A stretch of 59,233 nt of DNA, the filler included. It is 3 parts of 3 records of this genome, joined end to end, with 100 filler letters (N's around TTAATTAATTAA, not from the genome) between each part and the next. Parts side by side here need not be neighbours in the genome. Positions count along the whole stretch, not along the records: positions 50,180 to 59,233 come from SRR2962707_2280; 2 more parts are not named here. One strand, given 5' to 3'. Below, one piece after another: positions 1-59,233 of this stretch. Made by a program: the position numbers and the translations under genes. Within the stretch, counting starts at the first letter, position 1. Each line of letters opens with the position of its first letter. Under the pieces are notes generated by a model that had not been told where the DNA came from, ran no database searches, and saw only the letters and a list, made by a program, of their open reading frames with translations.

Positions 1-102
1 GTCATACACATTCATCTGGCAGCCATAGGTTTTCACAAACACTTTTTTGGTGTTGGCGATCGGCTGGATGGTTTCTTGATTTTCTAAAACTGGTGCGCTC
101 AT
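1..102 (-). CDS. miaB: tRNA-2-methylthio-N6-dimethylallyladenosine synthase MiaB, 5' fragment (runs off the window start)
   Basis: Manual translation from ATG at 102: [34 protein letters not shown], the MiaB/MTTase N-terminal TYGCQMN motif. Not in the ORF track. Confidence 0.9.
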
Positions 103-112
103 GGCCCTGCTT

Positions 113-928: not shown

Positions 929-1380
929 GACGTTTCGTCCTTTTTGGCGGATTTGTCTTCAATGGGCACAGCATAGAGTTCTAAGCGGTGATCGACGAGC
1001 TTATAGCCCAATTCGCGCGCGATTTCTTCTTGAAGCGCTTCAATGCGCGGATTTGTAAATTCAATGACGTGGCCGGAACGCAGATCAATCAGGTGATCGT
1101 GATGTTCGTCGGGAATAGCCTCATAACGGGCTCTGCCATCTCTAAATTCATGCTTTTCAATCAGCGCTAAATCTTCAAACAGGCTGACGGCGCGGTAAAC
1201 CGTAGAAATTGAAATATTAGCATCTATGGCCGAGGCGCGGTGATAAAGCTCTTCAACATCTGGATGATCGCTCGCGCTTTCGATGACGCGCGCGATAATA
1301 CGGCGCTGCTCAGTCATGCGCATGCCGCGTTCTGCAACTCTGTCTTCCAGCGATTTTTCCGGCTTTTCGGTCACCGTCAT
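925..1380 (-). CDS. fur: Fur-family metalloregulator (Fur/Mur type)
   Basis: RMTEQRRII, HPDVEELY, ISISTVYR, HHDHLID motifs. Confidence 0.9.
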   Translation of the reverse strand: MTVTEKPEKSLEDRVAERGMRMTEQRRIIARVIESASDHPDVEELYHRASAIDANISISTVYRAVSLFEDLALIEKHEFRDGRARYEAIPDEHHDHLIDLRSGHVIEFTNPRIEALQEEIARELGYKLVDHRLELYAVPIEDKSAKKDETS

Positions 1381-1399
1381 CCTCTCAGTTTCACACGCG

Positions 1400-1894
1400 C
1401 TAGTTTAAATCGCGGCGCATAACAAGCGCATTGAATCTTTCGCCGGTTGCAACTCTATAGTAGTTTTCACGCATGGCGACCTGAGTAAATCCAACGCGCT
1501 TATAAAGTGCAATAGCACTTTTATTGGTTTCGTTGACTTCTAAAAACAGGGACGAAACGCCGTCAATAAGCAGTTCTCCCGTCAGCCTGTCCATCAAGTT
1601 TCGGCCAATGCCTTGTCCTTGACGGGAAGGATCAACGGCAATCGTCAAAATTTCAGCTTCATCGGCGATAACCCGCGCGAGCACAAAACCGACAACAGCG
1701 CCGCCTTTGGTTTGCAAATCGCGTAAAGCAAAGCCGCGCACATTATTATTGTTCAAAAATGTCTGGAATTCGCCATCAGACCATGCAGGCACAAACGTTT
1801 TCGCATGAATATCGGCAATGGCATGGGTGTGCGACAGATCAAGGCGCTCTAAGGAAAATCCACCTTCACGACGCTTTTTAAATGGCCAGATCAT
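1400..1894 (-). CDS. rimI: Ribosomal-protein alanine N-acetyltransferase (GNAT)
   Basis: EAEILTIAV, RQGQGIG, FLEVNETN..AIALY, R.NYY; follows tsaB. Confidence 0.85.
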   Translation of the reverse strand: MIWPFKKRREGGFSLERLDLSHTHAIADIHAKTFVPAWSDGEFQTFLNNNNVRGFALRDLQTKGGAVVGFVLARVIADEAEILTIAVDPSRQGQGIGRNLMDRLTGELLIDGVSSLFLEVNETNKSAIALYKRVGFTQVAMRENYYRVATGERFNALVMRRDLN

Positions 1895-2565
1895 GTTGTT
1901 TTTCCTGCTGCGTGCGGCAATGCAAAATTTTCATTTATTTTAGCATCGGCGCTGCGCAAATAAAGCGGCTTGGGTGGCAGATCACTGGTCACAGCTAGCG
2001 CTGCGAATGCTTCGATAGAGCCAGTGGCACTTAACATTTGCGGTGCAGAGTGTGCGCCTTCAATTGATGCTGCGCCATTACCCACGATCAATCCAATATC
2101 GCTGAAGGTGCCCATTGGCATTTCATCGAGCTTAACAATGGATGGTTTACCAAGCGCAACGCCGTCATTATCAAAATGTTGAACGAAAAGCTGGCCGCGC
2201 CCGCCCGATAACGCAACAAGGAAGTCGGTTTGAGGCGTAATATTTGTCAAAACATCATGCGTAATGGCATTAAAAGTGGTGACGCCGACGACTGGAATTT
2301 CAAGCGCAAGGCCAAGACCGCGCGCCGCGGCAACACCGACACGGATACCGGTAAACGACCCTGGCCCAATATTGACACCCAATTTGGTGACATCTTCCAG
2401 CGATTGGCCTGCATCGCTTAAGACTTCTTCGATCAAAGAAAGCAGATGTTCTGCATGGCCACGGCCAATATCCAAAGATTTGGAGCCAAGCGGTGCCATA
2501 GCCTTTTCGTCCCAAAGGCAGACGGCACATAAATTGGCAGCGGTATCAATGGCTAAAATTGTCAT
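1891..2565 (-). CDS. tsaB: tRNA threonylcarbamoyladenosine biosynthesis protein TsaB
   Basis: ILAIDTA N-terminus, GPGSFTGIRVG, C-terminal P.PLYLR. Confidence 0.93.
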   Translation of the reverse strand: MTILAIDTAANLCAVCLWDEKAMAPLGSKSLDIGRGHAEHLLSLIEEVLSDAGQSLEDVTKLGVNIGPGSFTGIRVGVAAARGLGLALEIPVVGVTTFNAITHDVLTNITPQTDFLVALSGGRGQLFVQHFDNDGVALGKPSIVKLDEMPMGTFSDIGLIVGNGAASIEGAHSAPQMLSATGSIEAFAALAVTSDLPPKPLYLRSADAKINENFALPHAAGKTT

Positions 2566-2620
2566 AGGCTGTGCTTATCTAGATTTAACAGCCACAACAA
2601 TAGGCCAAAAGAATTGGTAA

Positions 2621-3499
2621 TCAGATTGCAACGCGCGGATCAAATTTAGCGGCTGCATCTGCATCAACAATGAAGGTTTTGCCCGCATGCGGATCGCTTG
2701 CACGGGCTTTATCCGTCATACCCTCAAACGCTGAAGTTACCGCTATTTTGCCGTCATTAACGAAAACTGGGCAGGTAGTTTGCGAGGCTGGCAGTTTGAT
2801 TGATTCCAGCAATTCGCCTTTATCATTGTATTTATTGAGCAGCCCTGCGCCCCAAATCGCAATCCAGAGATTGCCATGCACATCGGTAATCGCGCCGTCC
2901 AAGCCGCCTTCACTTTTGGTGTGATCAATGAATACTTCTGGCTCACCGGTCGGTAATCCCGTTTCAGGATCGACCGTGACGCGCATTAATTTGTTCACTC
3001 TCGTGTCCGTGAAATAGGCATATTTTCCATCAGGCGAAAAGCAGGTGCTGTTTGGAATGCTTATATTGGGGAACAGCATCGTCAAAATGCCGTTTCTAAA
3101 ATGGTAGATTGAGCCTGCACCATCGGCCGCACCAATGGCCATCGTGCCAAGCCAGAATGCGCCGGAGGGATGAACGCGTGCATCATTGGAGCGTGTTTCA
3201 GCATTATCAGCCTCAATGGGCGCGATTTGCTCCCATTCGCCATTTGTTTGATAGAAAATCCATAGGCCCGAGCTTGTGAAAATCAAATCTGCTTCGTCGC
3301 TGATGACAGCCATAGCACTTGCCATCTCAGGCAAAAGCTCGATGGATTTTTGACCATTATCAAAGTTATAGGCATGGCGCTTGGCGTTAAGAATATCAAA
3401 CCAAAACAATGTGTTGCGGCGGGCGCAGAAAAATGGACCTTCGCCCAACGTGCACGCATCATCGCATAGAATTGAAACTTCATGCATCAAATAGGCCAT
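2621..3499 (-). CDS. SMP-30/gluconolactonase/LRE family sugar lactonase
   Basis: LGEGP, RSNDARV, IPNSTCFSPDG, DGAITD..GNLWIA motifs. Start uncertain (ATG 3499 chosen; the ORF extends to 3514). Confidence 0.88.
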   Translation of the reverse strand: MAYLMHEVSILCDDACTLGEGPFFCARRNTLFWFDILNAKRHAYNFDNGQKSIELLPEMASAMAVISDEADLIFTSSGLWIFYQTNGEWEQIAPIEADNAETRSNDARVHPSGAFWLGTMAIGAADGAGSIYHFRNGILTMLFPNISIPNSTCFSPDGKYAYFTDTRVNKLMRVTVDPETGLPTGEPEVFIDHTKSEGGLDGAITDVHGNLWIAIWGAGLLNKYNDKGELLESIKLPASQTTCPVFVNDGKIAVTSAFEGMTDKARASDPHAGKTFIVDADAAAKFDPRVAI

Positions 3500-3531
3500 C
3501 CCATTGCCAACCAAATAAACTTAAAGCAGAC

Positions 3532-3999
3532 TTACTCGGTGTCGCTCGCCTGCGGCGCGCTGGTAAGCAGCTCATACAAAGCCTTTTTATCTTCTATGGA
3601 ACGAAGTTCATCAAGGCCTTTTGGATTGCGCAAAAAGCGGGCAATGCGCGATAATGCTTTTAGATGATCTGCACCAGCGCTTTGCGGCGCGAGCAGCAGA
3701 AATACGATATCGACGGGTTTATCGTCCAAAGCGTCGAAATCTATTGGCGTATCAAGCCTGACAAAGATCCCAAAAATGCGGTCAAATTTATCAAATTTTC
3801 CATGCGGAATGGCAATGCCATTGCCAACGCCGGTAGAGCCAAGCTTTTCACGCTGCAAAATTGTTTCGAAAATTTCGCGGGCGGGCAAGTCTGTTAACTC
3901 GGCTGCCTTGTCTGAGATTGCTTGAAGAAGCTGCTTTTTCGAACTTACTTTTAAATCGATTATGACAGCATCTTCGCTCAGAAATTCGCTGAGATCCAT
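3532..3999 (-). CDS. ptsN: PTS IIA-Ntr nitrogen regulatory protein
   Basis: REKLGSTGVGNGIAIPH phospho-His motif; rpoN-hpf-ptsN order. Confidence 0.95.
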   Translation of the reverse strand: MDLSEFLSEDAVIIDLKVSSKKQLLQAISDKAAELTDLPAREIFETILQREKLGSTGVGNGIAIPHGKFDKFDRIFGIFVRLDTPIDFDALDDKPVDIVFLLLAPQSAGADHLKALSRIARFLRNPKGLDELRSIEDKKALYELLTSAPQASDTE

Positions 4000-4055
4000 C
4001 TTACTTACCCAGTCCCGCTAATTTGCAGTAATTACTGCTACTCAATTGAACCCAG

Positions 4056-4631
4056 TTATTTCAGTGCTTCTGGATCAATCCAGCCAATATTGCCGTCCGC
4101 ACGACGATAGACCAGATTAACATCACCACTTCCTGCGTTTCGGAACACATAGACCGGGTTGTCCTGAAGGTCCAGTTGCAAAACGGCAGAGGCCACAGGC
4201 AATGTCGCTAACTGCATACGCGTTTCAGCAACAATGGCAGGCGCATAGTTGTCTGGTAGCTCTTCATCATCATCTTCAGGCAGCGCCTCAAGAACGCGGT
4301 AATGGTATTCTTCATCGCGTGAAGCGGCACCATTGGCATGGTGCGATTTTAGCCGGCGCTTATAGCGGCGAAGGCGCTTTTCAAGCCGTTCAGCGGCTGC
4401 ATCAAAGCTGCCATCTGGATTTTGTGCTTCACCCGTTGCTTGCAGCGTAACGCCACTGTCTAAATGTAAGATGCAATCTGTGGTAAAACGGCTTCCTGAC
4501 TTCTCGACGACCACATGTCCCGAAGCGCCGTGATCAAAATATTTCGCCAGTGCTTCGTCTATGCGATCTCCTATACGCGTTTTAAATGCTTCACCAATTT
4601 CCATATGTTTCCCAGAAACGCGTAAACTCAT
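4056..4631 (-). CDS. hpf: Long ribosome hibernation promoting factor (sigma54 modulation protein)
   Basis: MSLRVSGKHMEIG start, LEKRLRRYKRRLK, C-terminal VYRRADGNIGWIDP. Confidence 0.93.
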   Translation of the reverse strand: MSLRVSGKHMEIGEAFKTRIGDRIDEALAKYFDHGASGHVVVEKSGSRFTTDCILHLDSGVTLQATGEAQNPDGSFDAAAERLEKRLRRYKRRLKSHHANGAASRDEEYHYRVLEALPEDDDEELPDNYAPAIVAETRMQLATLPVASAVLQLDLQDNPVYVFRNAGSGDVNLVYRRADGNIGWIDPEALK

Positions 4632-22636: not shown

Positions 22637-24199
22637 GTGGGCTTATTTAAGAAGTTTGCCAGTGTTGGCGGTGCGACCTCAGCAAGCCGTGTGCTTGGCT
22701 TTGTACGTGAAGCATTAATCGCCTCTGTGCTGGGCGCAGGCCCTGTTGCGGATGCGTTCTATGCAGCGTTTAGATTTCCGAATTTGTTTCGCCGGCTTTT
22801 TGCAGAAGGGGCGTTTAATTCCGCCTTTGTGCCGCTGTTTGCCAAAGAGATAGAAGGCGATGGCAAAGAAGCTGCCGCCAAATTTGCGGGCGAAGTTTTC
22901 TCGGTTCTGCTGCTCTCGCTTCTCTTTTTAACGGTTTTGGCGATCGGCTTTATGCCGTTTCTCGTCAGCACAGTCATTGCGCGCGGCTTTGTGGATTCGC
23001 CTGATAAGTTTGAACTAACCGTAACATTGACCCGCATCATGTTCCCCTATCTGACCGCCATGTCGCTCGTGGCTATGTTGTCAGGTATTTTGAATTCGCT
23101 GCGCCGCTATTTCATCGCAGCCATCGCGCCTGTTCTTTTAAACGTGGTTTTGATCGGCGGTCTGACCTCTGCGATTTATCTTGATCTCACCGGACCCCAA
23201 ATCGGCATAATGCTTGCTGTTGGCGTTGTGTTTTCAGGCTTTTTGCAACTCGGTGTTTTGATCTTCGGTCTTTATAAGGCCGAGTTCTCTTTCCGGCCGC
23301 GCAGACCGCGCCTTTCGCCAAAAGTTAAGCGCCTTTTGGCTTTGGCTGCACCGGCCGCACTCACTGGCGGTATTGTTCAAATCAACTTGGTGATCGGTCA
23401 GATTATCGCCTCGCAGCAAGATGGCGCGATCGCGCTTTTGTCTTACGCAGACCGCATCTATCAATTGCCACTTGGCATTATCGGCATCGCTATTGGCGTT
23501 GTACTCCTACCGGAATTATCCAGAGCGCTGAGAGCCAAAGATGATAATGAAGCGTTGAGCCTGCAAAACAAAAGCTTGGAATTTGCCTTGGCGCTCACCG
23601 TGCCTGCCGCCGTTGCACTGGCGCTCATTCCATCTGAGATCGTTACAGTTCTATTCCAGCGCGGCGCTTTTACAGCGCAAACGACCACTGCGACAGCGGC
23701 TGCGCTCGCAGCCTTTGCTGTTGGTCTGCCGTCATTTGTACTGATTAAAGTGTTTCAGCCCGCCTATTTCGCCCGTGAAGATATGCGCACGCCGATGTGG
23801 TTTTCGGTTGTCTCACTGATTGTCAACGCTTCGCTTAGCGTCGCTTTATTTCCGTTTTATGGGCATGTCGGCGTTGCAATAGCAACAAGTGCATCAGGCT
23901 GGGCCACGGCGATCTTGCTCGGCGGCACTTTGTGGATCCGGCGCGATTTTCGTCCATCGCCAGTCACATTGCGCCGCTGTGTCATGATCGTATTTTCGAG
24001 TTTTGTCATGGGTATCGCAATCTATTTTGCCGCCGGGTGGGGCAATGATTTGTTTATGTCATCAACCATTTTGATGCGGGTATTATTGCTGGTTGGCCTT
24101 ATTGTGCTTTCAATGGCGATATATTTTCCACTGGCGCTGATAAGCGGTGCGCTTGATCGCAAAGCGCTTCTTATGTCAATCAAGCGGCCTAAATCTTGA
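22637..24199 (+). CDS. murJ: Lipid II flippase MurJ (MviN)
   Basis: SRVLGFVRE, AFRFPNLFRRLFAEGAF, YADRIYQLPLG. Confidence 0.96.
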   Translation: MGLFKKFASVGGATSASRVLGFVREALIASVLGAGPVADAFYAAFRFPNLFRRLFAEGAFNSAFVPLFAKEIEGDGKEAAAKFAGEVFSVLLLSLLFLTVLAIGFMPFLVSTVIARGFVDSPDKFELTVTLTRIMFPYLTAMSLVAMLSGILNSLRRYFIAAIAPVLLNVVLIGGLTSAIYLDLTGPQIGIMLAVGVVFSGFLQLGVLIFGLYKAEFSFRPRRPRLSPKVKRLLALAAPAALTGGIVQINLVIGQIIASQQDGAIALLSYADRIYQLPLGIIGIAIGVVLLPELSRALRAKDDNEALSLQNKSLEFALALTVPAAVALALIPSEIVTVLFQRGAFTAQTTTATAAALAAFAVGLPSFVLIKVFQPAYFAREDMRTPMWFSVVSLIVNASLSVALFPFYGHVGVAIATSASGWATAILLGGTLWIRRDFRPSPVTLRRCVMIVFSSFVMGIAIYFAAGWGNDLFMSSTILMRVLLLVGLIVLSMAIYFPLALISGALDRKALLMSIKRPKS

Positions 24200-24603: not shown

Positions 24604-24703
24604 NNNNNNNNNNNNNNNNNNNNNNNNNNNNNNNNNNNNNNNNNNNNTTAATTAATTAANNNNNNNNNNNNNNNNNNNNNNNNNNNNNNNNNNNNNNNNN
24701 NNN
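24604..24703. other. Artificial contig spacer N44-TTAATTAATTAA-N44
   Basis: 12-mer with stops in all six frames inside N runs; identical to the spacer at 50080; composition and taxon change across it. Confidence 0.98.
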
Positions 24704-45417: not shown

Positions 45418-48400
45418 ATGAAAAGACTATTATTAACCATGTCTTTGTTATTGTGTTGTACTATGGTATTCTCTCAGACCATTACAGGTACAGTAACAGA
45501 TTCGCAAGGAACTCCTTTGCCCGGAGTTTCCATTGTTGTTGATCAAACAGCAAAAGGAACATCAACAGATTTTGATGGTAATTACACAATTAATGCAACA
45601 TCTAGTCAAGTATTAGTATTTACTTATGTAGGTATGAAAACGCTAAAAAAAAGCGTAGGCTCTGACAGTGTAATAGATGTTGTTTTAACTGAAGACGCTC
45701 AGAGTTTAGATGAAGTTGTGGTAACAGCTTTAGGTATTTCAAGAGATAAAAAATCTTTAGGATATGCTACTCAAGAAGTAGATGGAGAAAATTTTAATTT
45801 AACTAATGAACAAAATGTTCTTGGATCACTATCAGGTCGTGTTGCAGGGGTTCAAGTAACAGGTGCTTCTGGAGCTAGTATGGGGGGAACTCAAAAAATT
45901 AAAATCAGAGGAGTAAATTCTATTAGTGGAGGAGATCAACCACTTATAGTAATTGATGGAACCCCAATATCTAATGCTAATTTTTCAGGGAGTGATCAAG
46001 CTGATTACGGAAATTTAGCGCAAGATATTAATCCTAATGACATAGCAGAAGTAAATGTTCTTAAAGGACCTGCAGCATCTGCATTATATGGAATACGTGG
46101 ACAATTTGGTGTAATAATGATAACTACTAAAAAGGGTAAAAAAGGACCTCGAAAAGTAGATGTGCAGTTATCATCGTCATTTTCTATGGAATCTGCGTAT
46201 AATTTTATTCCGTTACAAAACATGTATGGAGGTGGATCTAGTCAGACATTTCGAACACTTCCAAACGGCGATCCATACGTAGATATGAGTGTTGATGAAA
46301 GTTGGGGACCAAAAATGGATGGAACTCCAGTGCGTCAGGTATTTAGTTTTTATCCTCAAGACCCTCAATATGGACAGCTAACACCTTTTGTTGCGCATCC
46401 AAATAATGTTGAAGATTATTATAAAACAGGAACAACATTTAATAATAGTATTACAATAACAGGGGGAAATGAAAATACTTCTATTCGTTTAAGCGCTAAT
46501 GATACTAGAGTGGAAGGGGTGGTTCCTAATACTTCTTTAAACAGAAATAATGTTGGCTTGAGCGCAAGTTTAAACCTTACCGATAACTTGGTGGTCTCTA
46601 GTAATATTAATTATGCAGGAAATGAAGGGCAGCGTCCATCTCAAGGATCTGAATATGGAGGTGCATACATGGTTCAATGGTTTCAAAGAAATTTAGATAT
46701 GAACCGTTTAAGAGATTATAAATATAACGACGGAACCTTTCTTCATTGGAACTTAGGAAGACCAGATTCAAGTACTGGTGAAATATCAGATTTTGAACCG
46801 TTGTATTGGAACAATCCATATTTTGAAGCTTATGAAAATTTAAGTAATGATAGTCGAGATAGATTTTTTGGAGATATAGGGATGTCTTATAAAATTATTC
46901 CTGAGCTAGAAGTTAGCGGATTCATACGTACGGATATGTATACACAAAATATAGAACAGCGTCAAGCTTTTGGAGGGACACGTTTACCTTCTTATTCGGT
47001 TGGGAAGTATCAAAACAAAGAATTTAACTACGAACTTTTAGCACAATATAAAAATACATGGGATAAATTTTCTTTAGATGCTACTGTAGGAGGAAATATT
47101 TATGATAGGGACTATAGTTATTTAAGTCAAAGTACAGTAGGAGGTTTATCTTCTCCTGGGTTTTATAATATTGCTGCTTCAATAGATCGTCCCGATACTA
47201 AATCTAACAAACTAAGAAAGAAGATTAGAAGTTTTTATAGTTTAGTTTCTTTAGGTTATGACGGAACATATTTTATAGATGCTTCTATAAGAAATGACAA
47301 CTCTTCTGCATTGCCAAAGGATAACAACTCTTATTGGTATCCTTCTGTTTCTGGAAGTGTTGTGTTTAGTGAGCTTATAGATTGGACTCCTCTGTCATTT
47401 GGTAAAATTAGAGCTAGTTATGCACAAGCTGGTTCAGATTTAAGCCCGTATCAAACAAGTTTAAATTATGGAGTAGGAACTGTTTATAACGGAACTAATA
47501 CTTTATATGTTCCAGATGAACTTAATAATCCAAATATAGAACCTTCTTTTTCTAATTCATTTGAAGCTGGTTTAGAGTTAAACTTTTTCAGTAATCGTTT
47601 AGGGTTTGATTTTACATATTATCAGCAAAAAAATAAAAACCAAATACTTAATCTAGATGTATCAGGAACAAGTGGTTATAGCTCAAGTATAATTAATGCA
47701 GGTTTAATTGAGAATGACGGATTTGAATTGTCTATTAATGCAACACCAATTCGCTCAGAGGATTTTTCATGGGACTTTACTTTTAATATTAATAAGAACA
47801 ATAGTGAAGTTGTTGAGTTGGCTCCTGGAATAGATGTTTATACTTATGATTCTACAACTTATTCAAGTGTGTCTAGCTATTTGAATTCATATGAAGGTGA
47901 ACCTTTCGGAAGTTTAGTAGGGCAAGCCTATGAAAGAGACGAGGCTACAGGAGAAATTCTTTTAGATGATAATAACATGCCATTGTATACAGACGCTACT
48001 CACAATTTTGGAACTGTTCTACCAGATTTCAATGGAGGTTTTCAGAATACCTTTAGAATAGGTCAATTTACAGTAACAGGAATGATTGATTTCCAAGGTG
48101 GAGGTCAGTTTTTTAGTAGATCAAAAATGTTAGCAGTACGTACAGGTCAAGATGCACTTACCGTAGCCACCAATGATAATGGGATGAATGTTAGAGATCC
48201 TTTAGATCAAGGCGGAGGAGTTAAAGTAACAGGAATTTCCGCCAGCACTGGAGAGGATGTTACAGCGTATGTAGATGCTAGATCGTATTATAGAAATACA
48301 TTAGGTAGAAGAATTTATGAAGAATGGTTGTACGACGCTTCTTATGTGAAATTGAGAGAGCTTAGAGTTCAATATAATTTAGGGAAGAATATTATGGATA

Positions 48401-48585
48401 AACTTCCTTTTGAAACAATGAGTTTTGCTTTGATAGCTAGAAATCCTATCATGATTTGGCAAGAAGCTCCTAAAGGAATTAATCCTTCAGAAATATCAAC
48501 AGGAGCACAGTCTATCAGTTGGTACGAATCAGGACAATTACCTTCTGTTAGATCTTATGGTATAAATTTAAATGTTACATTTTAA
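45418..48585 (+). CDS. susC: SusC/RagA-family TonB-dependent transporter
   Basis: N-terminal extension, LDEVVVTALG, LKGPAASALYG..GVIMITTKKG plug motif, C-terminal NVTF. Confidence 0.95.
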   Translation: MKRLLLTMSLLLCCTMVFSQTITGTVTDSQGTPLPGVSIVVDQTAKGTSTDFDGNYTINATSSQVLVFTYVGMKTLKKSVGSDSVIDVVLTEDAQSLDEVVVTALGISRDKKSLGYATQEVDGENFNLTNEQNVLGSLSGRVAGVQVTGASGASMGGTQKIKIRGVNSISGGDQPLIVIDGTPISNANFSGSDQADYGNLAQDINPNDIAEVNVLKGPAASALYGIRGQFGVIMITTKKGKKGPRKVDVQLSSSFSMESAYNFIPLQNMYGGGSSQTFRTLPNGDPYVDMSVDESWGPKMDGTPVRQVFSFYPQDPQYGQLTPFVAHPNNVEDYYKTGTTFNNSITITGGNENTSIRLSANDTRVEGVVPNTSLNRNNVGLSASLNLTDNLVVSSNINYAGNEGQRPSQGSEYGGAYMVQWFQRNLDMNRLRDYKYNDGTFLHWNLGRPDSSTGEISDFEPLYWNNPYFEAYENLSNDSRDRFFGDIGMSYKIIPELEVSGFIRTDMYTQNIEQRQAFGGTRLPSYSVGKYQNKEFNYELLAQYKNTWDKFSLDATVGGNIYDRDYSYLSQSTVGGLSSPGFYNIAASIDRPDTKSNKLRKKIRSFYSLVSLGYDGTYFIDASIRNDNSSALPKDNNSYWYPSVSGSVVFSELIDWTPLSFGKIRASYAQAGSDLSPYQTSLNYGVGTVYNGTNTLYVPDELNNPNIEPSFSNSFEAGLELNFFSNRLGFDFTYYQQKNKNQILNLDVSGTSGYSSSIINAGLIENDGFELSINATPIRSEDFSWDFTFNINKNNSEVVELAPGIDVYTYDSTTYSSVSSYLNSYEGEPFGSLVGQAYERDEATGEILLDDNNMPLYTDATHNFGTVLPDFNGGFQNTFRIGQFTVTGMIDFQGGGQFFSRSKMLAVRTGQDALTVATNDNGMNVRDPLDQGGGVKVTGISASTGEDVTAYVDARSYYRNTLGRRIYEEWLYDASYVKLRELRVQYNLGKNIMDKLPFETMSFALIARNPIMIWQEAPKGINPSEISTGAQSISWYESGQLPSVRSYGINLNVTF

Positions 48586-48595
48586 TTAAAGGAAG

Positions 48596-49984
48596 ATGAA
48601 AAACATATATATAAATACATTACTTATAGCTTTATTTATAACGAGTTGTAGTAATTTTGATGAGGATATTAATACAAATCCGAATGTTCCTAGTCAGGCT
48701 TCTGGTATGCAATTAATAGCACAAGCAGAGTTGTCGTTACCAGGTTTGAGTTCTTCCCCTCAAGGAGAGTTTATGTCACAATATTTAGCAGAAACTCAAT
48801 ATGTAGGGACATCTCTTTATCCACAGCAAAGTACAAGTTTCTATGGATGGTATCAAGGACCATTAGCCGATTTACAGGCCGTAATTACATCTGATAACTT
48901 AACAGGTACTGAAGGTCCTATAGAAAATCAAATAGCAGTAGCTAAAATATTAAAGGCTTATTATTTTTGGAATTTAACAGACAGATGGGGAGATATTCCA
49001 TACAGTGAAGCTTTGAAAGGACAAGAAGATTTTACTCCTATTTATGATTCTCAAGAATCTATATACAAAGATTTATTTGCTGAATTGAAAGAAGCTTCAA
49101 ATATGATTGTTACTGGTAATTTAAGTAATGATATTATTTATGATGGAGATATTAGTAAATGGAAGAAGTTTTCTAATACTGTTAGAATGTTAATGGCGCT
49201 TCGTTTATCCGAAGTAGATCCTGCAACTGCACAAGCAGAGTTTGTAAGCGCTATTGATGATGGGGTTTTTACCTCTAATGATGATAATTTGTTTTTTCAG
49301 CATTTAGCTGATGCAAATAATCAGAATTACTGGTATGGGCAAATAGTAAATCAAAATAGAGAATGGTGGGCTCTTACTGAAGGATTAGTAGATCAAATGA
49401 AGCCTGTAAACGACCCACGATTACCAATTTATGGAAATCCAGCTAGAGATAGTGGGGAGTATGTAGGAATGCTTTATGGGGATGAAGTAAATTTAGGGAC
49501 TCAAGAATATTCTTTACTGGGAGATGCAATTTATGCGCAAGATGCACCCGTATATTTAGTAACATATGCTCAGGTTCTTTTTGCAATGGCAGAAGCTTCT
49601 CAACGTGGTTGGATTGCAGGTGATACAGCATCTTTTTATGAAAGTGCTATTGAAAGTTCAATTTTACAGTGGACAGGTAATACAGATACAGTAGCAGATT
49701 TTATGATGGAGCCTGGGATTGCCTTTAATGATGCTATAGGCATTGAGCAGATAGCAACTCAACGTTGGGTACATTTATTTATGTTTGGATATGAGGCATG
49801 GGCAGAGTGGAGAAGAACAGGTTTTCCAAATATGATGGTTTCTCCTAATGGAGCAGCTGTACCAGCTCGTTTAAGTTATCCAGATAATGAAGCTTTTAAT
49901 AATGAAGTTAATTATAACGAAGCTTTAGATAGACAGTTTGGAGGTGAAGATTCTATTTACGGCCAATTATGGTGGGATAAATAG
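48596..49984 (+). CDS. susD: SusD/RagB-family surface lipoprotein
   Basis: ITSC lipobox, LTDRWGDIPYSEA, EAWAEWRRTG.P, LWWDK end. Confidence 0.93.
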   Translation: MKNIYINTLLIALFITSCSNFDEDINTNPNVPSQASGMQLIAQAELSLPGLSSSPQGEFMSQYLAETQYVGTSLYPQQSTSFYGWYQGPLADLQAVITSDNLTGTEGPIENQIAVAKILKAYYFWNLTDRWGDIPYSEALKGQEDFTPIYDSQESIYKDLFAELKEASNMIVTGNLSNDIIYDGDISKWKKFSNTVRMLMALRLSEVDPATAQAEFVSAIDDGVFTSNDDNLFFQHLADANNQNYWYGQIVNQNREWWALTEGLVDQMKPVNDPRLPIYGNPARDSGEYVGMLYGDEVNLGTQEYSLLGDAIYAQDAPVYLVTYAQVLFAMAEASQRGWIAGDTASFYESAIESSILQWTGNTDTVADFMMEPGIAFNDAIGIEQIATQRWVHLFMFGYEAWAEWRRTGFPNMMVSPNGAAVPARLSYPDNEAFNNEVNYNEALDRQFGGEDSIYGQLWWDK

Positions 49985-50079: not shown

Positions 50080-50179
50080 NNNNNNNNNNNNNNNNNNNNN
50101 NNNNNNNNNNNNNNNNNNNNNNNTTAATTAATTAANNNNNNNNNNNNNNNNNNNNNNNNNNNNNNNNNNNNNNNNNNNN
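50080..50179. other. Artificial contig spacer N44-TTAATTAATTAA-N44
   Basis: Identical to the spacer at 24604-24703. Confidence 0.98.
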
Positions 50180-50191
50180 CTCTTCCGATCT
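50180..50191 (+). other. Illumina adapter remnant
   Basis: CTCTTCCGATCT, the 3' end of the TruSeq adapter, at the first base of the contig. Confidence 0.85.
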
Positions 50192-50298
50192 TCGATTCTT
50201 TTCAGCTGATTTGATTCCTTAGGTTGTCAAAGAGCCTCGAAGTCACAGGCGGCAAGTTTTTTGTGTGAATTAATTTCGAATCAGTTCGCCACACCACC

Positions 50299-52476
50299 AT
50301 GTCGATCATGTCGGGAGACGAGATTCCGGACGAGCTGAAGCCGTTTCGCCCGCACCTGTCGGCGCGTTTCTTCGAGATGCGCGAGCGCGTGCTCGATTTT
50401 GTGTTTTCAGTCGTACAACCTGCGAAAGAACGCTATGCTCGCGAGCTGAAAACAAACGAGCAGGCGGCTGTGGCGCAAGGGTTGCACCCGCTCAAGGCCC
50501 GCGAGCCGGCAGTGTTGTCGGAGTTGCGGCAGGCTGCGAAAGAGCGCGGGCTCTACAACTTCTTCCTCCCCACTGTATGCGGCTTGTCGGTCCTCGAATA
50601 TGCCCCAATTGCCGAGATTCTTGGAATTTTTCGGCTGGCAAACCAGGTTGGTGACTCTTTGCAGACGTTATTGCCCGTGTTTACAGTGGTTGACGACGCA
50701 GAGTGCGGCTCCGCTGAGTTTCTCAATTTTCTCGCTCTTTCTCTCACTCCCATCTTGCTATGACAACTGCCCTAGGCAATGAACTGCGCGGCACCAGACA
50801 CTGGGAACATGGAGGTGCTGGAGCAATTCGGCACGCCTGAGCAGAAAGCTCAGTGGCTGGACCCTTTGCTGGCAGGGGAAATCCGGTCCTGTTTCGCTAT
50901 GACGGAGCCTGGGGTTGCCAGTTCGGACGCTTCTCAGATCAGCTGTCGTATCGACCGTTCAGCTGACGGCGAAAGGTATGCGATGGGTAGCGACACTGCT
51001 TTGGGTGTTCCTGTCTGCTCGTTGGTGGTTGCTGGTCTGATTTCGAAGTGTATGTTTGTGCGTTACACGTGGAATGTGGAATGTCTGCTGCACCCGTTGC
51101 GTCGCTTCCAGCTACGTGATCAATGGACACAAGTGGTACATTTCAGGCGCTATGCGGCCCGAGTGTAAGGTTGCCATTCTTCTTGGCAAGACCTCGTTTG
51201 ATGGACCCGTTCACCGCCGTCAGTCAATGATCTTGGTGAGTCGATTTTTCTCATTTCTGCCCCAACCGTGCACCTGCGTTTACGGTGTCATAGCCCCCGA
51301 GCGCAACGCAGATGACCCATTCACTGCCTCGTGGGTGCCGAAATCATGCATGCCAGGTGCCAATGGACTCACCCGGTATTACGATTTTGCGTCCGCTGGC
51401 CGTATTTGGCCATGAACATGACCATGCTGAGATTATTTTTGACAATGTGGTCGTTCCCAAAAAGAATATGGTTCTGGGCGAGGGAAGGGGCTTTGATATC
51501 GCACAGGTAAGCTGCCGCGACAAGTCGGGGTCATTTCGAAGTTTTTTTCGGCGCATACTGTACTAATTTGTTTGTGCCGTCTGGATTCGAGAAGTGACCA
51601 TTGCTGCAACTGCTTCTGCGCGTTTATCATCAGGCTCGCCTTGGCCCTGGGCGTATCCACCACTGCATGCGAACGATTGGTCTAGCGGAGGCAGCGCTGT
51701 CTGCGATGGTTCATCGAGCGCACAACCGATCGGCGTTTGGGTCTCTGCTGGCCGAAAAAGACACAATTCGCCAAGTTATTGCACGGGCACGCATTGAGAT
51801 TACGAAATGTCGCAGTCTCTGCTATTTGGCGGCGTTTATGGCAGATACTGTGGGGTTCAAAGCGGCTCGCAAGGTGAGTTGAGCGTGCAAGAACGACAGA
51901 GAGTAATTTTTTTGCAAATTTAGGGCGCCAGTGTTACCATGTGTAATACTTGCAATTGCAATGTTATGAAGTACATCTCGATGATCAAGATTGAAGCTCC
52001 TCGCATGGCCCTGAAAGTCGTCGATGAAGCTATTCAGATGCATGGGGCCCACGGCGTGTCACAAGACAGCCGCCTCGGTGCGATGTACACTGGTTCGTGG
52101 AACCATCTCTGAAAGTGCAACAGTTTGGCGAAAGACGCTTCCATGATGCTTGGTAATTCTGCAACTCATATGTGATCGCGCAGGCCTCCGAACATTGCGT
52201 GTCGCAGATGGTCCTGACGTGGTGCACTTGAACACCGTGGCCAAGGTTCGCCTGTGCCTTCGCAACGCCAAAATCTGCGCTTGTGTTTCCGAAATCGGTC
52301 GCATGTACGTACACACATAATGTGTGTCACACGAACGTCGATGTCACTCATTCGCATTTGTGCAGGTGGAGATGAATCGCCCGCCGAGCATTTTGGGTCA
52401 GGCTGTATCGGGCACGAACAAGAATATTGCCAAGTACGGAAAGTTTGAACATCTAGAGGAGCGTGCGCGAATGTAA
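50299..52476 (+). CDS. Eukaryotic spliced acyl-CoA dehydrogenase (ACAD10/11/IBR3-type ACAD domain), 451 aa, PTS1-like C-terminus
   Basis: Exons 50299-50646, 50776-50975, 51112-51235, 51357-51506, 51634-51873, 51972-52092, 52184-52245, 52366-52476. All 7 introns are GT-AG (91-136 nt) and keep the frame. Motifs [62 protein letters not shown]; ends ...EERARM*. Kozak-like ACCACCATG. Confidence 0.9.
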
Positions 52477-53473
52477 GCACTTGGCCCCAAAGCAAGACGC
52501 TCAGTTTTTTCTCACCCACAGTGGTGGTGCGGGCCACTAAGCGTGGAAAAACCGAAATACTGCAGACGAATCACCCAGGTGAAACCTTGAACGAACCGGT
52601 CCAAGACGAAGCGCGAGAATACCTTGCTTGGAACGACAAAAATTACAGAGATCCATACCGGGCTAGTGATGTGCTTGACTGATTTCTTGTCGTTCGGTGC
52701 TTGTTTCCTTTTGCGTTGATTTTCAAATCAAAAACAACAACACAATGAGCGACCGTAAAGTTCATTTTTTCCTATGACTTTGTCACCCAAACTTGGTGTG
52801 TGGTCGTCGGGTGCACGAGTTGCGTGGTTGTTTGCTTGCCCGCTCAAACGGCGAGATTTTGTGAGTGGGGAAGATCGAGGGTCTCTACGTTACCTACATT
52901 CATTCTGGCCTCACTGAGTGCGAAGTTCATGTCGGCCTTGGATGAGTCGGTATTAGCATGTATGTATGTATGCATGTAAGCATCGACGCATCCGGTTGTG
53001 AGATTGCTTGCCACAGTAAGTTGAGCCCTGCTATCTGCAGTGATGGCGATGGATGGGATCTATGCATCGGCTCCCGCGTTCGGTGGAGCTGCGGTTTTCT
53101 CGAGCATAATCCGCTGACCGACATGGAACAAACGTGTTGATGCGGCACTATCGGGTGACAAGACATGAGAAATACCACCATCAAGTTCATCAGCGTGATA
53201 TAGTCGGTTTTGTTTGTTACTACCGCCTGGACAGCGTACCCGCCAGCCTCTGAAAGCCCATCGTTGTTTCGGTCGGCTTGTTCTCACCGTCGCTGAGACT
53301 GTTCAGTGGTGCCTTGATAGCTTGGCGAAAGTAAACCCTCAGTTTTTTCTCACGCACAGTGGTGCTGCGGTGCACCAAGCATGTAAAACCCAAAATACCG
53401 CAGACAAATCGCGCAGGAGAAGTTATTAAAATGTTAAAAATGGACATCCTATTCGCGAAGTAATAGTCAAAGG

Positions 53474-56400
53474 CTACCACTCAACCGGAGCCTCCATCAC
53501 GCTTGCCGAAAAGGTGGTTTCGCCTTGCAAGAGAGTTGGAAGCTCTTGTACTCTGAGTGACGGTTGGACACGCGTGAAGTCGTCATTATCAATCTTTAAC
53601 ACCAACGTCTAACGCATGGCCCACCAGCAAGAAAACCAAGCACGCAACGAAAAAGTTGAGAGAATGGTCGACGACTCAAAACACCCACTTCTCAAGGCCA
53701 TGCACCGCAATCGCATGGAGCTCAGATTGTGTGGGAAAATACCGTCCAATCGACGCCCAGAAACTTTGCAAAATCCTTGTACAACTTCCGAATCAACATT
53801 GTTGGCTTCACCTATGAGAGGCGAGAATGTTGCATGTTGCACATACACCACATAAACACGAAACCATGACAGCATGTTGCACATTAAATCAGAGCAATTA
53901 TGGGTCATACATCATGTTTTATACATTGGATCAGAGCTATCATAGGTCGAATGTGGACACATTATGGCCCCTGGCAGACACTCGACAGTGGCGGCGATAA
54001 CATACCTTGTATTTTCTACTTTTGTTTGAAGCAGCATGGTTGATCTGCAGCAAAACATGCTGCGTAGGAAGAGGTGCGGGCAGGACCGGCGCAGGCACAG
54101 ACTGAGAGGTGCTTGCAGTGGTTTGAGATGGGCTTGCGACAGCCTGTACCATTTCCGCTGCCTTGGGTTTGAGGCTCGAGCCCGTTGGATCTTGCAGCGT
54201 AGGTTTGGCCGGAGTCAGTGATTGGGGATTTGGTGGAGTGTCTCCACCTGAGGTCGAAGCTGCACTCGGGCCGCCGTCACTGCCGCTGGCACTACCGCTG
54301 TTGCTACGACTTGGAAGCGACGCTGTTGGCTTTCGTGCGGGGGATCCGGCAACTTTAGACAACACCGAGGGCTCTTCAGGCTCGACCTCAAGAGCTCGAA
54401 GAGCTTCCCCATCGTATGAGTCTGGCCCTGGTCTGAGGCCGAACCGCTGCTCAAACTACCAAAACAGCAGGCAAGGCAAAACCCACAGTTTACGCCTCGG
54501 GACCGAATGCAGGTTGGTCGCGCATGCTTGACCCACCACACGCACCAAGCGTTGCCGAGCTTGCGCTTGACCAACGGCATCTACCGACACGTTCGTTCTC
54601 CCAACAAGAATGTGACTATTGGTGGCCACGTTGTACGACGCAAGGGTTCGGTGATCGAGCATTAAATGTCCATACGTTGCCTGCGACACCACCAACAGCA
54701 AGAATTTCCCAACCTCAGTGATTGCCAGCCAATTTGTCGACAAAAGCAGCGAAGGAGCACCCATGCAACACAGCTGGGACATTCAGAAAGCGCACCGTGG
54801 TGAGCTGCTGCTGGGGGACTGGGATTGAGATGCGGGCGGACAACTTTTCTTTGAGATGGTGTACAGTGTCTGTGCTTCGCACTTCGACCGTCAGAGAAGC
54901 AAAGTTCGCACCATTGCCGGCACGAACAGTCAGGGCCAGAACAACGCCAGGATTCCCTGCCGCAGAAGGAGACGCTACAGCTGCACCAGGCGACGCGATG
55001 CCAGCGGCCCGCTGGCGCTCCTGTCGTTGTTTTTCCTTCTCTGATCGAATTCGTTCCCGGCGTTGTTTGTCGTACTCATTCAACTCAAAAATCTTTCGGA
55101 AGTCATTTCGGTTCAGTCCTGCACCCACGCGCCGCTTTGCCGGCCCTCCTTTGCTTAGCATGTCCTCTGCCAATTGGCGTTTTGCAACTTGGACGTCAAA
55201 TATCCGGTCTTCCACCGTTCCCTGCGCAGCAGCACAGCACGGACCGGGCCACCAGGCACTTCAGCAGTGCAAGCGACAGAAGATGCGACAAACAAAATCG
55301 AAATGTTTGCCGCCGAAATCGCACCTTCACTCGTAAGTGAAAAATCTGGACAGGCTTCGTCTGGCCGATTCGATGCGTTCGATCAACAGCTTGGTCTTCA
55401 ATGGACGGATTCCACCTGCACAACACGGAGCAGAAAGGTAATTCCAGTTGGATGGCAGAGCAACATCACTGTCGAGCAGAAATCGGAGGGCGAAAAAGAT
55501 TACCAAATGTCCATAAATATGCAAGTGTTGGCGCAGGTCAAGTTTAAGCCGGCGTTGCCACATGTTGTTGAAAGCAGCAGAACGGCCACGCCCCCTGCTT
55601 CTTCGTAAGCCTCAAAGGCAAGAAGTGTTGCGTCGCGTGCCTCGCTGCTCATTTGTCCTGTGTACATGAAAACCTAGAGAGTTTTTCCAAACACGTTCCA
55701 GCGAAACGTCAAATTGGAGAGCGCGGCACCACGTGTGCGAGTGTTGAGCAAAGTGCGAGCCCGAGCAAATTAATGGGGAAATCAAGAGTCACCTTGTATG
55801 TTTTGCCAGTTGCGGCAGCTTCGTCGTCAATGCGGTCTTTCAGCCTATGCAAGACTGACGTGAACATGCAAAACACAAGCGTTTTCTCGCAGGTCATATT
55901 GGCCGCCGGCTTCGCTTGTTCCCCATTTTCGGGGATAGTAGCCTTTGGCCGGGTCTGTTCCAAGATCTCCACCGCCTTTTCGAACTTCGTTGAATAAATG
56001 TAGTCTTGAAGGACTATGGTGGGGTCTGAACACGCCGAGTCTTTGACCCCAGAAGATGCTGCTCTTTTGGAGTTGTGCTCACGGACAAGGCCTCGTACGC
56101 GCGCAAGCTCTTCCTCAGACAAGTTCAAGTCTTCTTTGCTTGGGACGCCTCCCATGGCGATGTGAACGAACTCGGCTTCCATTGTGGGACGGAGTTGGTT
56201 GCTTCGGCACATGTGACCTGCATTAAAATGGAGTTGTCACAGCAAAGGCCCAAGGTGAAAGGGAAAGCATTTGCACATGCCTTCCTCAATACATAGCAAT
56301 GCGTCCGATCACTTGCATTCTGTCAGCTGGTCCATATGATCGGCACAACAACCGTGCCCGCAGGGGAAGAGAGAGAGATTTTGCGCGATATCGAAGCAGA

Positions 56401-58945
56401 TAGGGCACTCAAATTTGTCGGGAATGAAGTCACCGGCAACAACGCGTTTTTTGATGAAATCACGACGGCTGTCGTCCATCTTTTCTAACCAACGCTTTGC
56501 CCGCGCAAGTCCAGCCTCAAGGCGGTCGGCGGCCTTTCCAGCTTCTGCTTCGCCTCCTTCTGACAGAACTTCCGTAATTCGAAGCCACCCAGGCAGTACT
56601 GCTTGCGTGAGGCAACATTGGCGGAGTCGAACCAGCAACGCTAGCATGTCAACAAAGCCGCGATTGCCTCTGCCATCCTACGCATTCGACCCGCCAAGTC
56701 ACGATTATTCTTCTTTTTCGACAAAACAATTGACGCCAAACGGGCCTCCAAAAAAATAGATTAAAACGAACGTCATGATCTTCCCCCCCGTGACGGTAAC
56801 GACGACCGCGGTTCTGTGGCAGATTCTGCATAATTTTGGCGGCTTCCGCTTGAGCACGACTGAAGATGATGTTGTAGCATGCTTGCTCGACCGGTGAGAA
56901 AGTCAGCAGCTCCGTTGTATGCTATTTGATATGCAGATCAAAGCACGCACAATTTGTGAGCACGGTGGCTTCGATCGCATTGCAGCCAAAGTAAACGAGT
57001 TGCACAACTTGCAAATGACTCACTGTTTTTGGGGGGAGACTTGTCAAGACATCCTCCTTGACCCGGCGCAGCATGAGCCGATGCAACACCTACACCACAG
57101 CAGCAGGCGTCAGCGCAGATTTCGGAAAGCATCTCGCCAAGCAGACATGACCAGTGCATAGCACGTGGCCAACCTTTTTTGTCTCAACCATGTTGTTCTG
57201 CAAGCGCTTGTTTACTGCCTGATGATAGCGGCCCGCGCCGCGTTCATTTGTACCAGAGACGTTTCGAAGCATTTTCACCTGTTGGATGCAGCCACCGATA
57301 AGCAATGTTGGAGGACCAAATACTCGTACACTCTAAAGCAACAGGACGGGTCTCGAGCACCGTGCTGCACACTTACATCAAGGAATATGAAAAAGGAAGA
57401 TAATTCTTCGATTTTGTTTTGAAGTGGCGTCCCAGTCAATATCCAGCGGCGTTGCGCTCTCAGTGCGCTACACCCAAGAGCAAAAGTCGAGTTGTAGTTG
57501 CGAATAGTATGGCCTTCGTCGAGCACAATACGGTGCCACTCCACATCGAAGAGTGTGTTCCTGTCTCCTGCAAGGCACGCACAAGCTGGTGAGTTCAACG
57601 TCTGGGCGAGCATGGGCCAGCATGGAGCAGCAAACCAAAACGCACTTGGTCCATATCCACGGGAAATGCCGTATTGCCGAGACACAGTGTGATAGTTGGT
57701 CAAAACTACATCGTACCGACCAACCAGCTGACTCGCAGTGAAAAGTCGTTTGTCTTTGCCGTAGTAGATTAACACATCAAGCCTGCAAATTCCACATGCT
57801 GCAGCGTCAAATTCACCATGTCCCCACGCCCACTGCACTGCAGACAATCAAGAAGCAACAATACAATACCGCGACAGAGCGTGCAAAAGCTTGCGTACAT
57901 CGGTGCAAATTTGTTGATTTCTCGACGCCATTGACGAAGGAGCACGATTGGTGCCACGATCAAGGTCGCACGCTTGTACACGCGGGTACTAAAAATGCCG
58001 AGGTAGTCATCTTCGCTCATGAATTCCGGCTTTTGACAAGGTCGTTGGCTGGCTTCAGCGCGGTTCTGGGGAAGGCATAGTCCACAATGGCATAATGAGG
58101 GAGAGCAAAACAAAGCAACCAAGGGGCTGCCTCAGAGCCAACACTGGCGAGTTGACACAGGACAGAAGTGATCTACAAACCATCAGCATGAGACATATTG
58201 TTTGCATGGTTTTTCCGAGGCCCATGCCGTCGCACAGCATGCCGTGCATACCCATGCGCAATGACAGCTGGTGCGTTCCAAAATCACCTGCAGGTGCCCA
58301 GCGACAAGCAGACCAGAGTAAAACAAACAGACTGAGCAGGTCACGGTCAATAACGACGCCACCCATTGCATGGTAAAACAATCACTTTGTCCAATTTCAT
58401 GCTGCTGCACCAACCTCGTCGGGGGTCCGTTTCGCGCTCAAACATCCACCGCACCCCTTGCACTTGGTGTGCAAACAAGTGAACTCCAGGCTTGAGGCCC
58501 GGAACCACTAATTGTTCACTTTCACCAGCAGCGGCACCTTCGTCAGGATTCGGTTTTTCGCCGACAGGCGTGCTCTTGTTAAGCCAATCTTTCAGGTCTT
58601 CATCCAAATTGCTGTCGTCAACATAGGAAGCCGCCGCCGCCGCTGCCACGCTCGAGCTTGACGAATTTGAAGCAGCGCGAACGTCTGAGGGCGTGGCGGT
58701 CATAAAGAGCTCCTCATCTGACGATCCGCTTTCTTCTTCGCTCGACGAGATACAGATCTCGCGACGGACTCGCTTCTTCACCTGAGTCGTGAGCAAAGAA
58801 AATGCAAAGGCCACGTCACGCCAGCTGAAAACAACAGGTCTCATTGGCCGCAGTGGTTTCAAAAGAGATTGAAACGCGAGTGGTCCCTCAAAGGCAGACA
58901 AATGCAAGAGAAACAAGAAGCACGGACCGGACTAGAAAACGACAT
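53474..58945 (-). CDS. Eukaryotic spliced SNF2-family ATPase with RING finger (Rad5/Rad16/Uls1-like) plus C-terminal ubiquitin-like and SUMO-like domains, ~1189 aa
   Basis: Exons (minus strand) 58945-58928, 58781-58415, 58287-58181, 58065-57899, 57782-57646, 57567-57377, 57278-57174, 57089-57024, 56921-56772, 56677-56317, 56217-55793, 55673-55504, 55415-55325, 55221-54796, 54680-54546, 54455-54006, 53811-53743, 53608-53474 (3570 nt, one open frame). Motifs LFAHQVQGVRWM, CDGMGLGKT, TLIVAP..QW, VLDEGH, LTGTPLQN, MLRRVK, LRQCC, RING, KTLVFCMF, GNAGLNLT, WNPSIEDQAVDRTHRIGQ. First and last exons are the least certain. Confidence 0.85.
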
Positions 58946-59207
58946 GGCGCTGAAAAAATCCTTCGAAAAGTTGCGAAACCAAAACAGCGAAACAAAGAGA
59001 ACAACAGAAAAAAAGCGAGGACACAACACGTTTACAGCACTGACACTCGAGTCGTCGTGTCTGTCTTCGAAGCTCGCGCTCACACCACACACACTTTCTC
59101 TTTCGTGCGAACACAAGGTTTCAGCGCAGCCTGCGCCAGACCCCAACTGAGTCGGAGAAGAAAGACGGGCGCTGTGTCGTGTCTGTTTGTTTGAAAAGAC
59201 ACAACTC

Positions 59208-59233
59208 CACACACACACACACACACACACACA
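59208..59233. repeat. (CA)n microsatellite at the contig end
   Basis: Pure CA run to the last base; a likely cause of the assembly break. Confidence 0.9.

Follow-up and report, generated by a model that had tools for sequence, protein, structure and literature searches.

Gene Structure and Transcript Evidence

The window, that is, the whole stretch of 59,233 nucleotides analysed here, carries on its minus strand a gene for a SNF2-RING protein, in which a SNF2-type ATPase with a RING finger is followed in the same chain by a ubiquitin-like (UBL) domain, referred to below as UBL1. The gene is located entirely in the third of the contigs that make up the window (position 50180 onward), which is eukaryotic, and the linkers between the contigs have no effect on it. 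All features of the gene described below are on the minus strand, and the coordinates of those that extend over more than one exon include the introns.

The transcribed unit runs from 59196 to 53472 and consists of 18 exons, located, from high to low coordinates, at 59196-58928, 58781-58415, 58287-58181, 58065-57899, 57782-57646, 57567-57377, 57278-57174, 57089-57024, 56921-56772, 56677-56317, 56217-55793, 55673-55504, 55415-55325, 55221-54796, 54680-54546, 54455-54006, 53811-53743 and 53608-53472. All of them are joined by one spliced contig of 3835 nucleotides, which aligned to the window in 18 pieces and came from X1, the one run found in a search of public runs (56% of the sampled words). 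No run recorded as RNA was among those listed, and the label of X1, "RNA?", is a guess; the RNA origin of the contig is deduced from its joints, since they are spliced. Over positions 52800-59233, X1 provided three contigs, all at least 99% alike to the window. The 17 introns, of 78-194 nucleotides, comprise 16 of the GT-AG type and a single GC-AG intron (56316-56218), the only one with a non-GT start. Fifteen of the joints were placed at GT..AG (14) or GC..AG (one) within the stated ambiguity of the alignment, and the remaining two, both GT..AG, were derived from the table of alignment pieces. Directly upstream of the first exon, the window ends in a (TG)n microsatellite (59197-59233).

The mRNA obtained by joining the exons is 3823 nucleotides long and contains a single long frame, encoding 1189 amino acids (aa) when counted from the first methionine. 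The coding sequence extends from 58945 (ATG, 58945-58943) to 53474 (TAG, 53476-53474). The frame is without a stop upstream as far as the 5' end of the contig, so that an earlier start is possible, even beyond the window. At the other end, the X1 contig terminates 2 nucleotides past the stop codon, and a separate contig of 374 nucleotides spans 53041-53414. After UBL1 the frame remains open for about 235 codons across three splices, so that the tail of the protein is coding. The locus is one real spliced eukaryotic gene. An earlier note on this DNA had proposed the same start (58945) and end (53474) by manual splicing, in exact agreement with the transcript, and its count of 18 exons is borne out by the pieces of the X1 contig. 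A transcript stopping before the ubiquitin-like exons, or an assignment of these exons to a separate gene, was not seen, as the one X1 contig spans all exons.

The SNF2 Motor and the RING Finger

The N-terminal lobe of the motor (aa ~95-430, 56790..58517) was recognized by the Pfam family SNF2-rel_dom, which matched 5 of the 10 exon open reading frames (ORFs) in an exon-wise scan (best E 1.7e-23), and its top match in the PDB was Rad5 (6l8n). The C-terminal lobe (aa ~655-785, 55325..55924) matched Helicase_C at 31.2 bits in the same scan. The ATPase motifs, located in the spliced protein, comprise motif I (GMGLGKT, 58228-58208), motif II (LDEGH, 57523-57509), motif III (LTGTPLQN, aa 309-316, 57439-57416), motif V (aa 734-744, 55568-55536) and motif VI (QAVDRTHRIGQ, 55393-55361). 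With all five present, and with DEGH as the core of motif II, the protein belongs to the SNF2 family and to its Rad5/16-like group. The motifs look intact, and motor activity is predicted. Compared with the PDB, the core was closest to Rad5 (6l8n, 52.4 bits), ahead of ERCC6.

The RING finger (aa 527-560, 56207..56407) is located between the two ATPase lobes, after motif III and before motif V, as in other members of the group. Its zinc ligands follow the pattern C-x2-C-x11-C-x-H-x2-C-x2-H-x6-C-x2-C, in which the sixth ligand is a histidine, and the GC-AG intron interrupts it between the sixth and seventh ligands. In addition to the ligand pattern and weak Pfam matches, the assignment is supported by the PDB, where all 20 matches of the RING exon at E<=1 were RING-type ubiquitin ligases (E3s). 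A word-indexed protein search with this exon, a shallow method, found nothing. The pattern C-G-H-G-C-C-x2-H is also present in the closest relative, L001 (a metagenome contig, positions 1-4208), which is 48% identical over aa 72-335 and 79% identical over exon 6; its RING likewise has a histidine as sixth ligand, but its second loop is longer. Pfam, PDB matches and motif positions therefore agree with the SNF2 core and inserted RING described in the earlier note.

Among the 120 database relatives listed, the best were similar to HLTF/SMARCA3, with 29-41% identity in alignments that took in at least 62% of the 190-aa core ORF, and three shorter local matches (31-32% coverage) reached 53-62% identity. 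Most HLTF relatives among the matches listed contain the HIRAN domain (PF08797). In the present protein only about 95 residues precede the motor, and no Pfam family was recognized at E<=0.1 in the 194-aa ORF that covers the N-terminal coding exon. Because this short N-terminus is without a HIRAN match, the protein is, by its predicted domains, a HIRAN-less member of the Rad5/16-like group and not a Rad5/HLTF protein proper.

The Ubiquitin-Like Domain and Its Junction with the Motor

UBL1 is a ubiquitin-type domain of aa 877-954 (54600..54948), divided by a phase-0 intron (54795-54681) and identified by Pfam, PDB and hidden Markov model (HMM) comparisons. Its first half alone matched the Pfam ubiquitin family (PF00240) at 26.1 bits, above the cut-off of 25.4 bits (E 7.5e-6, profile positions 10-41), versus 13.1 bits for Rad60-SLD, and it aligned with residues 12-43 of ubiquitin in the PDB. 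The second half, encoded by exon 15, had six PDB matches at E<=10, all of them ubiquitins and all around positions 47-70; a ubiquitin-like chain was matched over residues 47-70 and polyubiquitin-C over residues 48-66, colinear with the first half. The HMMER matches of exon 14 supplied 466 distinct UBL units, from which a ubiquitin-family HMM was built. Against this model the spliced UBL1 scored 51.8 bits (HMM positions 15-73), compared with 29.0 bits for exon 14 alone, 29.0 bits for the unspliced read-through of the intron (the database ORF P0121) and 13.7 bits for exon 15 alone (HMM positions 51-73). The units had been chosen by their match to the first half of UBL1, which leaves the 13.7 bits of the second half as the only independent score. 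Since this half scores independently and the total increases from 29.0 to 51.8 bits when the exons are spliced, UBL1 is considered a complete domain.

The equivalents of ubiquitin Ile44, Lys48, Lys63 and Val70 in UBL1, according to the PDB and HMM alignments, are Thr, His, Thr and Gly, respectively. The domain has no C-terminal GG and continues straight into a linker, unlike a conjugatable modifier. Over the matched stretches it is 31-44% identical to ubiquitin units. Judged by its sequence, UBL1 is an integral, non-conjugatable ubiquitin-type domain in which the classical receptor-binding patch is not kept.

The junction between the motor and UBL1 is located within exon 14 (aa 786-927, 54796..55221), which is in phase 0 at both ends. 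This exon encodes, in order, the C-terminal helix of the SNF2 region (aa 786-807), a stretch rich in Lys, Arg and Glu (aa 833-856) and the first half of UBL1. The helicase-lobe alignments of relatives reach aa 804-831, well inside the exon, and P0121 is the same genomic reading of it. Because exon 14 holds both the SNF2 helix and half of the ubiquitin-type domain, the fusion is genomic and independent of any splice. In the ESM Atlas, the best result for this exon was 0.78 to HAND-domain clusters, below a usable level. The proposals that the chain runs past motif VI into a ubiquitin-like segment, and that ATPase, RING and a ubiquitin-type UBL are combined in one protein, accordingly hold: a single exon bridges the SNF2 tail and UBL1, one spliced transcript contig carries all three, and the segment itself is recognized by Pfam above its cut-off, by colinear PDB matches and by the spliced HMM score.

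The Linker, the C-Terminal Module and the SIM Candidate

UBL1 is followed by a linker of about 150 residues (aa 955-1104, 54060..54599, including the intron 54545-54456), which was delimited by composition and matched no Pfam family. Its core is rich in Ser, Pro, Ala and Gly; over aa 973-1098 (126 aa) it contains 17% Ser, 15% Pro and 12% Ala, and it is probably disordered. This composition corresponds to the Ser/Pro-rich linker that had been predicted to follow the UBL.

The chain ends in a putative folded module of about 85 residues (aa 1105-1189, 53477..54059), encoded by three exons. The earlier note had described it as a SUMO-like domain, a description that found no support in any family, PDB or profile match. 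No Pfam family, Rad60-SLD (PF11976) included, was matched at E<=1 by the ORFs of the three exons, although this exon-wise test is weak. In the PDB, nothing matched the last exon at E<=10, and the only match of the middle exon was a bacteriocin, attributed to chance; in the ESM Atlas, the last exon had no usable match. Comparison of the module with the 466 UBL units by hhalign gave a probability of 0.13% (E 0.43), with the local alignment in a beta-grasp register, and the score against the ubiquitin-family HMM was -1.3 bits, which was reached by 302 of 500 shuffles. A phmmer search against the 270 proteins collected in the analysis returned a best E of 0.15. These tests are weak, as the module, divided among three exons, was compared either piecewise or against ubiquitin-type profiles. 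The module was also compared with UBL1 as a possible duplicate of it, and this origin was rejected (Smith-Waterman score 22, reached by 587 of 1000 shuffles). By eye, its hydrophobic pattern reads strand-strand-helix-strand...strand, which is compatible with a beta-grasp but is without statistical support. One stretch may resemble SUMO. Taken as a whole, the odds that the module is a beta-grasp are put at slightly better than even.

At the N-terminus, an acidic and Ser-rich run (aa 14-30, 58710..58760), preceded by the residues ICI, is the only candidate for a SUMO-interacting motif (SIM). The protein was searched by a regex scan for a core of the form psi-psi-x-psi, psi-x-psi-psi or psi-psi-psi-x (psi being V, I or L) with at least eight D, E or S in the surrounding 20 residues. 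No canonical core of this kind was present in the whole 1189-aa protein, so the SIM expected of a SUMO-targeted ubiquitin ligase (STUbL) was not found. The acidic/Ser cluster is kept in L001, without ICI. The SIM of the earlier note is thereby reduced to a degenerate ICI with an acidic/Ser run behind it, and the reading of the protein as a STUbL, which depended on this motif and on the SUMO-like domain, is left without either support.

Relatives and Novelty of the Architecture

The protein extends much further beyond the motor than its relatives do. In 109 of the 120 database relatives listed, the alignment covered the end of the helicase lobe, and these proteins stop between -22 and +45 residues (median 18) past the position of aa 813, compared with a continuation of 376 residues in the present protein. 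The statement that SNF2-RING proteins normally end soon after the helicase lobe is thus in line with all 109 aligned relatives. Neither the ubiquitin nor the Rad60-SLD Pfam family was found in any of the 120 database relatives among the matches listed.

Exon 14 was used for a full HMMER search of 1.84 billion representative proteins, in which 150 matches were listed: the window's own ORF P0121 and 149 proteins of the multi-ubiquitin type. A word-indexed search of longer proteins with the exon-14 ORF, again a shallow method, found nothing, and a metagenome scan with the same exon found no relative. The corresponding scan with exon 6 detected 34 loci, none of which had a tblastn match past aa 857. 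It was possible to map where the helicase lobe ends in 29 of these loci, 22 of them with at least 1 kb of downstream sequence, and in none of the 29 was a ubiquitin-family match found within 3.5 kb downstream, the sole row having an E of 0.99.

The combination of a SNF2-RING protein with a ubiquitin-like domain was also not found in searches of the literature, which covered abstracts and passages of PMC10692494 and PMC10138738. The earlier claim that no protein with this architecture has been described is upheld to the extent that none appeared in the database or literature searches; these were shallow and did not take in InterPro architectures or eukaryotic transcriptome collections, which leaves an undescribed architecture plausible. 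The SNF2-RING family is a known one, and the architecture is probably new as to its built-in ubiquitin-type tail.

Proposed Function and Alternative Explanations

The best explanation of the locus as a whole, to which we give a probability of roughly 60%, is that it encodes a HIRAN-less SNF2-RING motor-ligase with UBL1 as an in-cis docking or regulatory module. Such a protein would act in genome maintenance, its DNA-dependent motor delivering the RING E3 to chromatin-bound substrates or to DNA structures. UBL1 is not regarded as a modifier or chain acceptor, because it has no GG end and because the Ile44 patch and Lys48/Lys63 are lost; it would instead serve as a ubiquitin-fold module for docking or regulation. 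Flexibly tethered to the ligase, it could contact the RING of its own chain and the bound ubiquitin-conjugating enzyme (E2) and so tune the output of the ligase, in the manner of the UBLs of Parkin and UHRF1. Alternatively, UBL1 may recruit a lineage-specific partner. The terminal module would then form another small folded domain, which may likewise be a beta-grasp.

Several points weigh against this interpretation. The RNA support consists of one contig from one run and one study, identical to the assembly, and X1 probably derives from the same organism or project as the assembly. The Pfam matches of the C3HC4 RING are weak, the best E of 1.5e-4 lying below the Pfam cut-off in score, partly because an intron splits the RING. 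The role suggested for UBL1 draws on analogy with other E3s. With the Ile44 patch lost, binding by way of the usual ubiquitin surface is less likely, which also weakens the comparison with UBLs that bind E2s or the proteasome. No tail orthologue emerged from the HMMER search, where none of the 149 listed matches aligned to the spliced protein outside aa 880-975; the list was filled by polyubiquitins, the weakest at 35.7 bits, so diverged SNF2+UBL proteins would be missed. The L001 contig ends 15 nucleotides past the helicase lobe and is uninformative on the tail. The tail has so far been seen in one lineage.

Among the alternatives, the first is a STUbL or remodeler similar to Uls1/Ris1, in which SUMO would be read by a SIM near the N-terminus and the module at the C-terminus, as a SUMO-like domain, would dock or autoinhibit, for instance through self-binding between the SIM and the SUMO-like domain or through binding of Ubc9 as in Rad60/NIP45. 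The HIRAN-less SNF2-RING layout, shared with Uls1/Ris1, agrees with this idea, as do the acidic/Ser-rich run after ICI, whose cluster is also present in L001, and the beta-grasp-like pattern and hhalign register of the terminal module, the latter without significance. It has to contend with a protein that offers no canonical SIM core in acidic context, with an ICI that L001 does not keep, and with a terminal module that has no Pfam, PDB or Atlas match and whose profile scores are at the level of chance shuffles. As the SIM is missing and the SUMO-like domain is unsupported, this is a minority reading, and we regard it as unlikely.

A second alternative, judged unlikely to the same degree, is that UBL1 is a delivery signal of the Rad23/Dsk2 kind, by which the motor-ligase would be taken, together with the cargo it has ubiquitylated, to Cdc48/p97 or the proteasome. 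UBL1 is indeed of the ubiquitin type and not of the SUMO type, as the Pfam scores of its first half show, it is carried on a long flexible linker, and repair factors with proteasome-binding UBLs provide a precedent. The difficulty is in the surface that receptors usually read, where the equivalents of Ile44 and Val70 are Thr and Gly.

Under a further, rather improbable reading, the tail would imitate a hybrid ubiquitin-SUMO signal within the protein itself, with a ubiquitin-type and a SUMO-type beta-grasp in tandem on a flexible tether. Such a tail might act as a self-switch, in which the acidic SIM-like motif binds the SUMO-like domain and UBL1 gates the RING and its E2, or might permanently display a "modified-substrate" signal for proteins that read mixed chains. 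If true, the protein would represent an undescribed class of self-regulated SNF2-RING proteins, in which a single chain connects SUMO with ubiquitin signalling.

Finally, a merger of a SNF2-RING gene with a small UBL gene by a chimeric contig or assembly, or a tail that is a non-functional exonised ubiquitin fragment, could be suspected from the single transcript contig of a single run, from a window that joins contigs of different organisms and calls for caution on assembly quality, and from the absence of a tail orthologue, but a fusion by artefact is very unlikely, given that motor and UBL1 meet within a single exon (55221-54796) with an unbroken frame from the SNF2 helix to UBL1, and it is further opposed by the position of the gene wholly inside one contig and away from the linkers, by the divergence of UBL1 from ubiquitin units together with its own intron, which speak against recent capture, and by the further open codons over three splices.

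Comparison with Known Systems

Proteins such as Rad5/HLTF, Rad16, Uls1 and SHPRH couple DNA translocation with ubiquitin signalling in damage tolerance and repair, and the gating of their ligase activity is only partly understood. The protein described here resembles Rad5/HLTF (PDB 6l8n) in its SNF2 motifs, with DEGH in motif II, and in the RING between the ATPase lobes. It differs in having no HIRAN domain, a histidine as sixth RING ligand and a 376-residue C-terminal extension with a UBL.

In-cis UBLs are found in several RING-type E3s, including Parkin, UHRF1, HOIL-1L and, as the RAWUL domain, Ring1B/PCGF, where they serve in autoinhibition, E2 contact or partner docking. The arrangement predicted here is similar in that the ligase finger shares its chain with an uncleavable ubiquitin-fold domain. 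In contrast, the UBL is N-terminal in Parkin, UHRF1 and HOIL-1L, and UBL1 is without an Ile44-type patch. To our knowledge, none of these E3s has a SNF2 motor. Another group, Rad60/Esc2/NIP45, combines N-terminal SIMs with two C-terminal SUMO-like domains. An acidic N-terminal motif and two small C-terminal modules in tandem, the second of them putative, are likewise present in our protein; its UBL1 is of the ubiquitin type instead of the SUMO type, and Rad60/Esc2/NIP45 are not known to have a motor or a RING.

Uls1/Ris1 and fission-yeast Rrp1/Rrp2 are HIRAN-less SNF2-RING translocases and SUMO-targeted ligases, and a C-terminal UBL tail is not described for them in the texts consulted (PMC10692494, PMC3203583, PMC8266636). 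The similarity to these proteins is one of layout: the SNF2-RING layout is HIRAN-less, and the N-terminal acidic/Ser-rich region could in principle contact SUMO. Unlike them, the present protein has no canonical SIM and a much shorter N-terminus.

A natural SNF2-RING protein with an in-cis ubiquitin-fold module would provide a compact model in which to study the possible regulation or redirection of a motor-ligase by a ubiquitin mimic, and it adds one case to the E3s that bear their own UBL. Its value is limited by the fact that domain accretion is common in protist members of the family and that the tail comes from one lineage.

Composition of the Window and Neighbouring Genes

The window consists of three contigs and is not one molecule. 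The contigs are separated by linkers at 24604-24703 and 50080-50179, each composed of 44 N, TTAATTAATTAA and 44 N, which form a spacer with stops in all frames. The first contig (1-24603) has a G+C content of about 50% and looks bacterial; it carries on the plus strand a 520-aa ORF for a MurJ lipid II flippase (22637-24199, 382 bits). The second contig (24704-50079) is bacterial, with a G+C content of about 33% and dense ORFs on the plus strand. Its genes encode a CLC channel, a NAD-dependent DNA ligase, CoaBC, a RecN-like SMC protein, a GT2 glycosyltransferase and a histidine kinase, and a SusC-like/SusD-like pair (45418-49984) suggests that it comes from Bacteroidota. A prokaryote genome (G001) has 40% of the 31-mers of the window in common, which are probably accounted for by this contig. 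The second contig is a co-assembled bacterium and not an insertion, and the source assembly mixes organisms.

The third contig opens with CTCTTCCGATCT (50180-50191), which we take to be a remnant of an Illumina adapter. Between this point and the SNF2-RING gene, and convergent with the latter, is an intron-split acyl-CoA dehydrogenase-like gene on the plus strand (50269-51882), assigned by Pfam through a match to Acyl-CoA_dh_1 of 52 bits on 51598-51882 and a weak match to Acyl-CoA_dh_N on 50776-51168.

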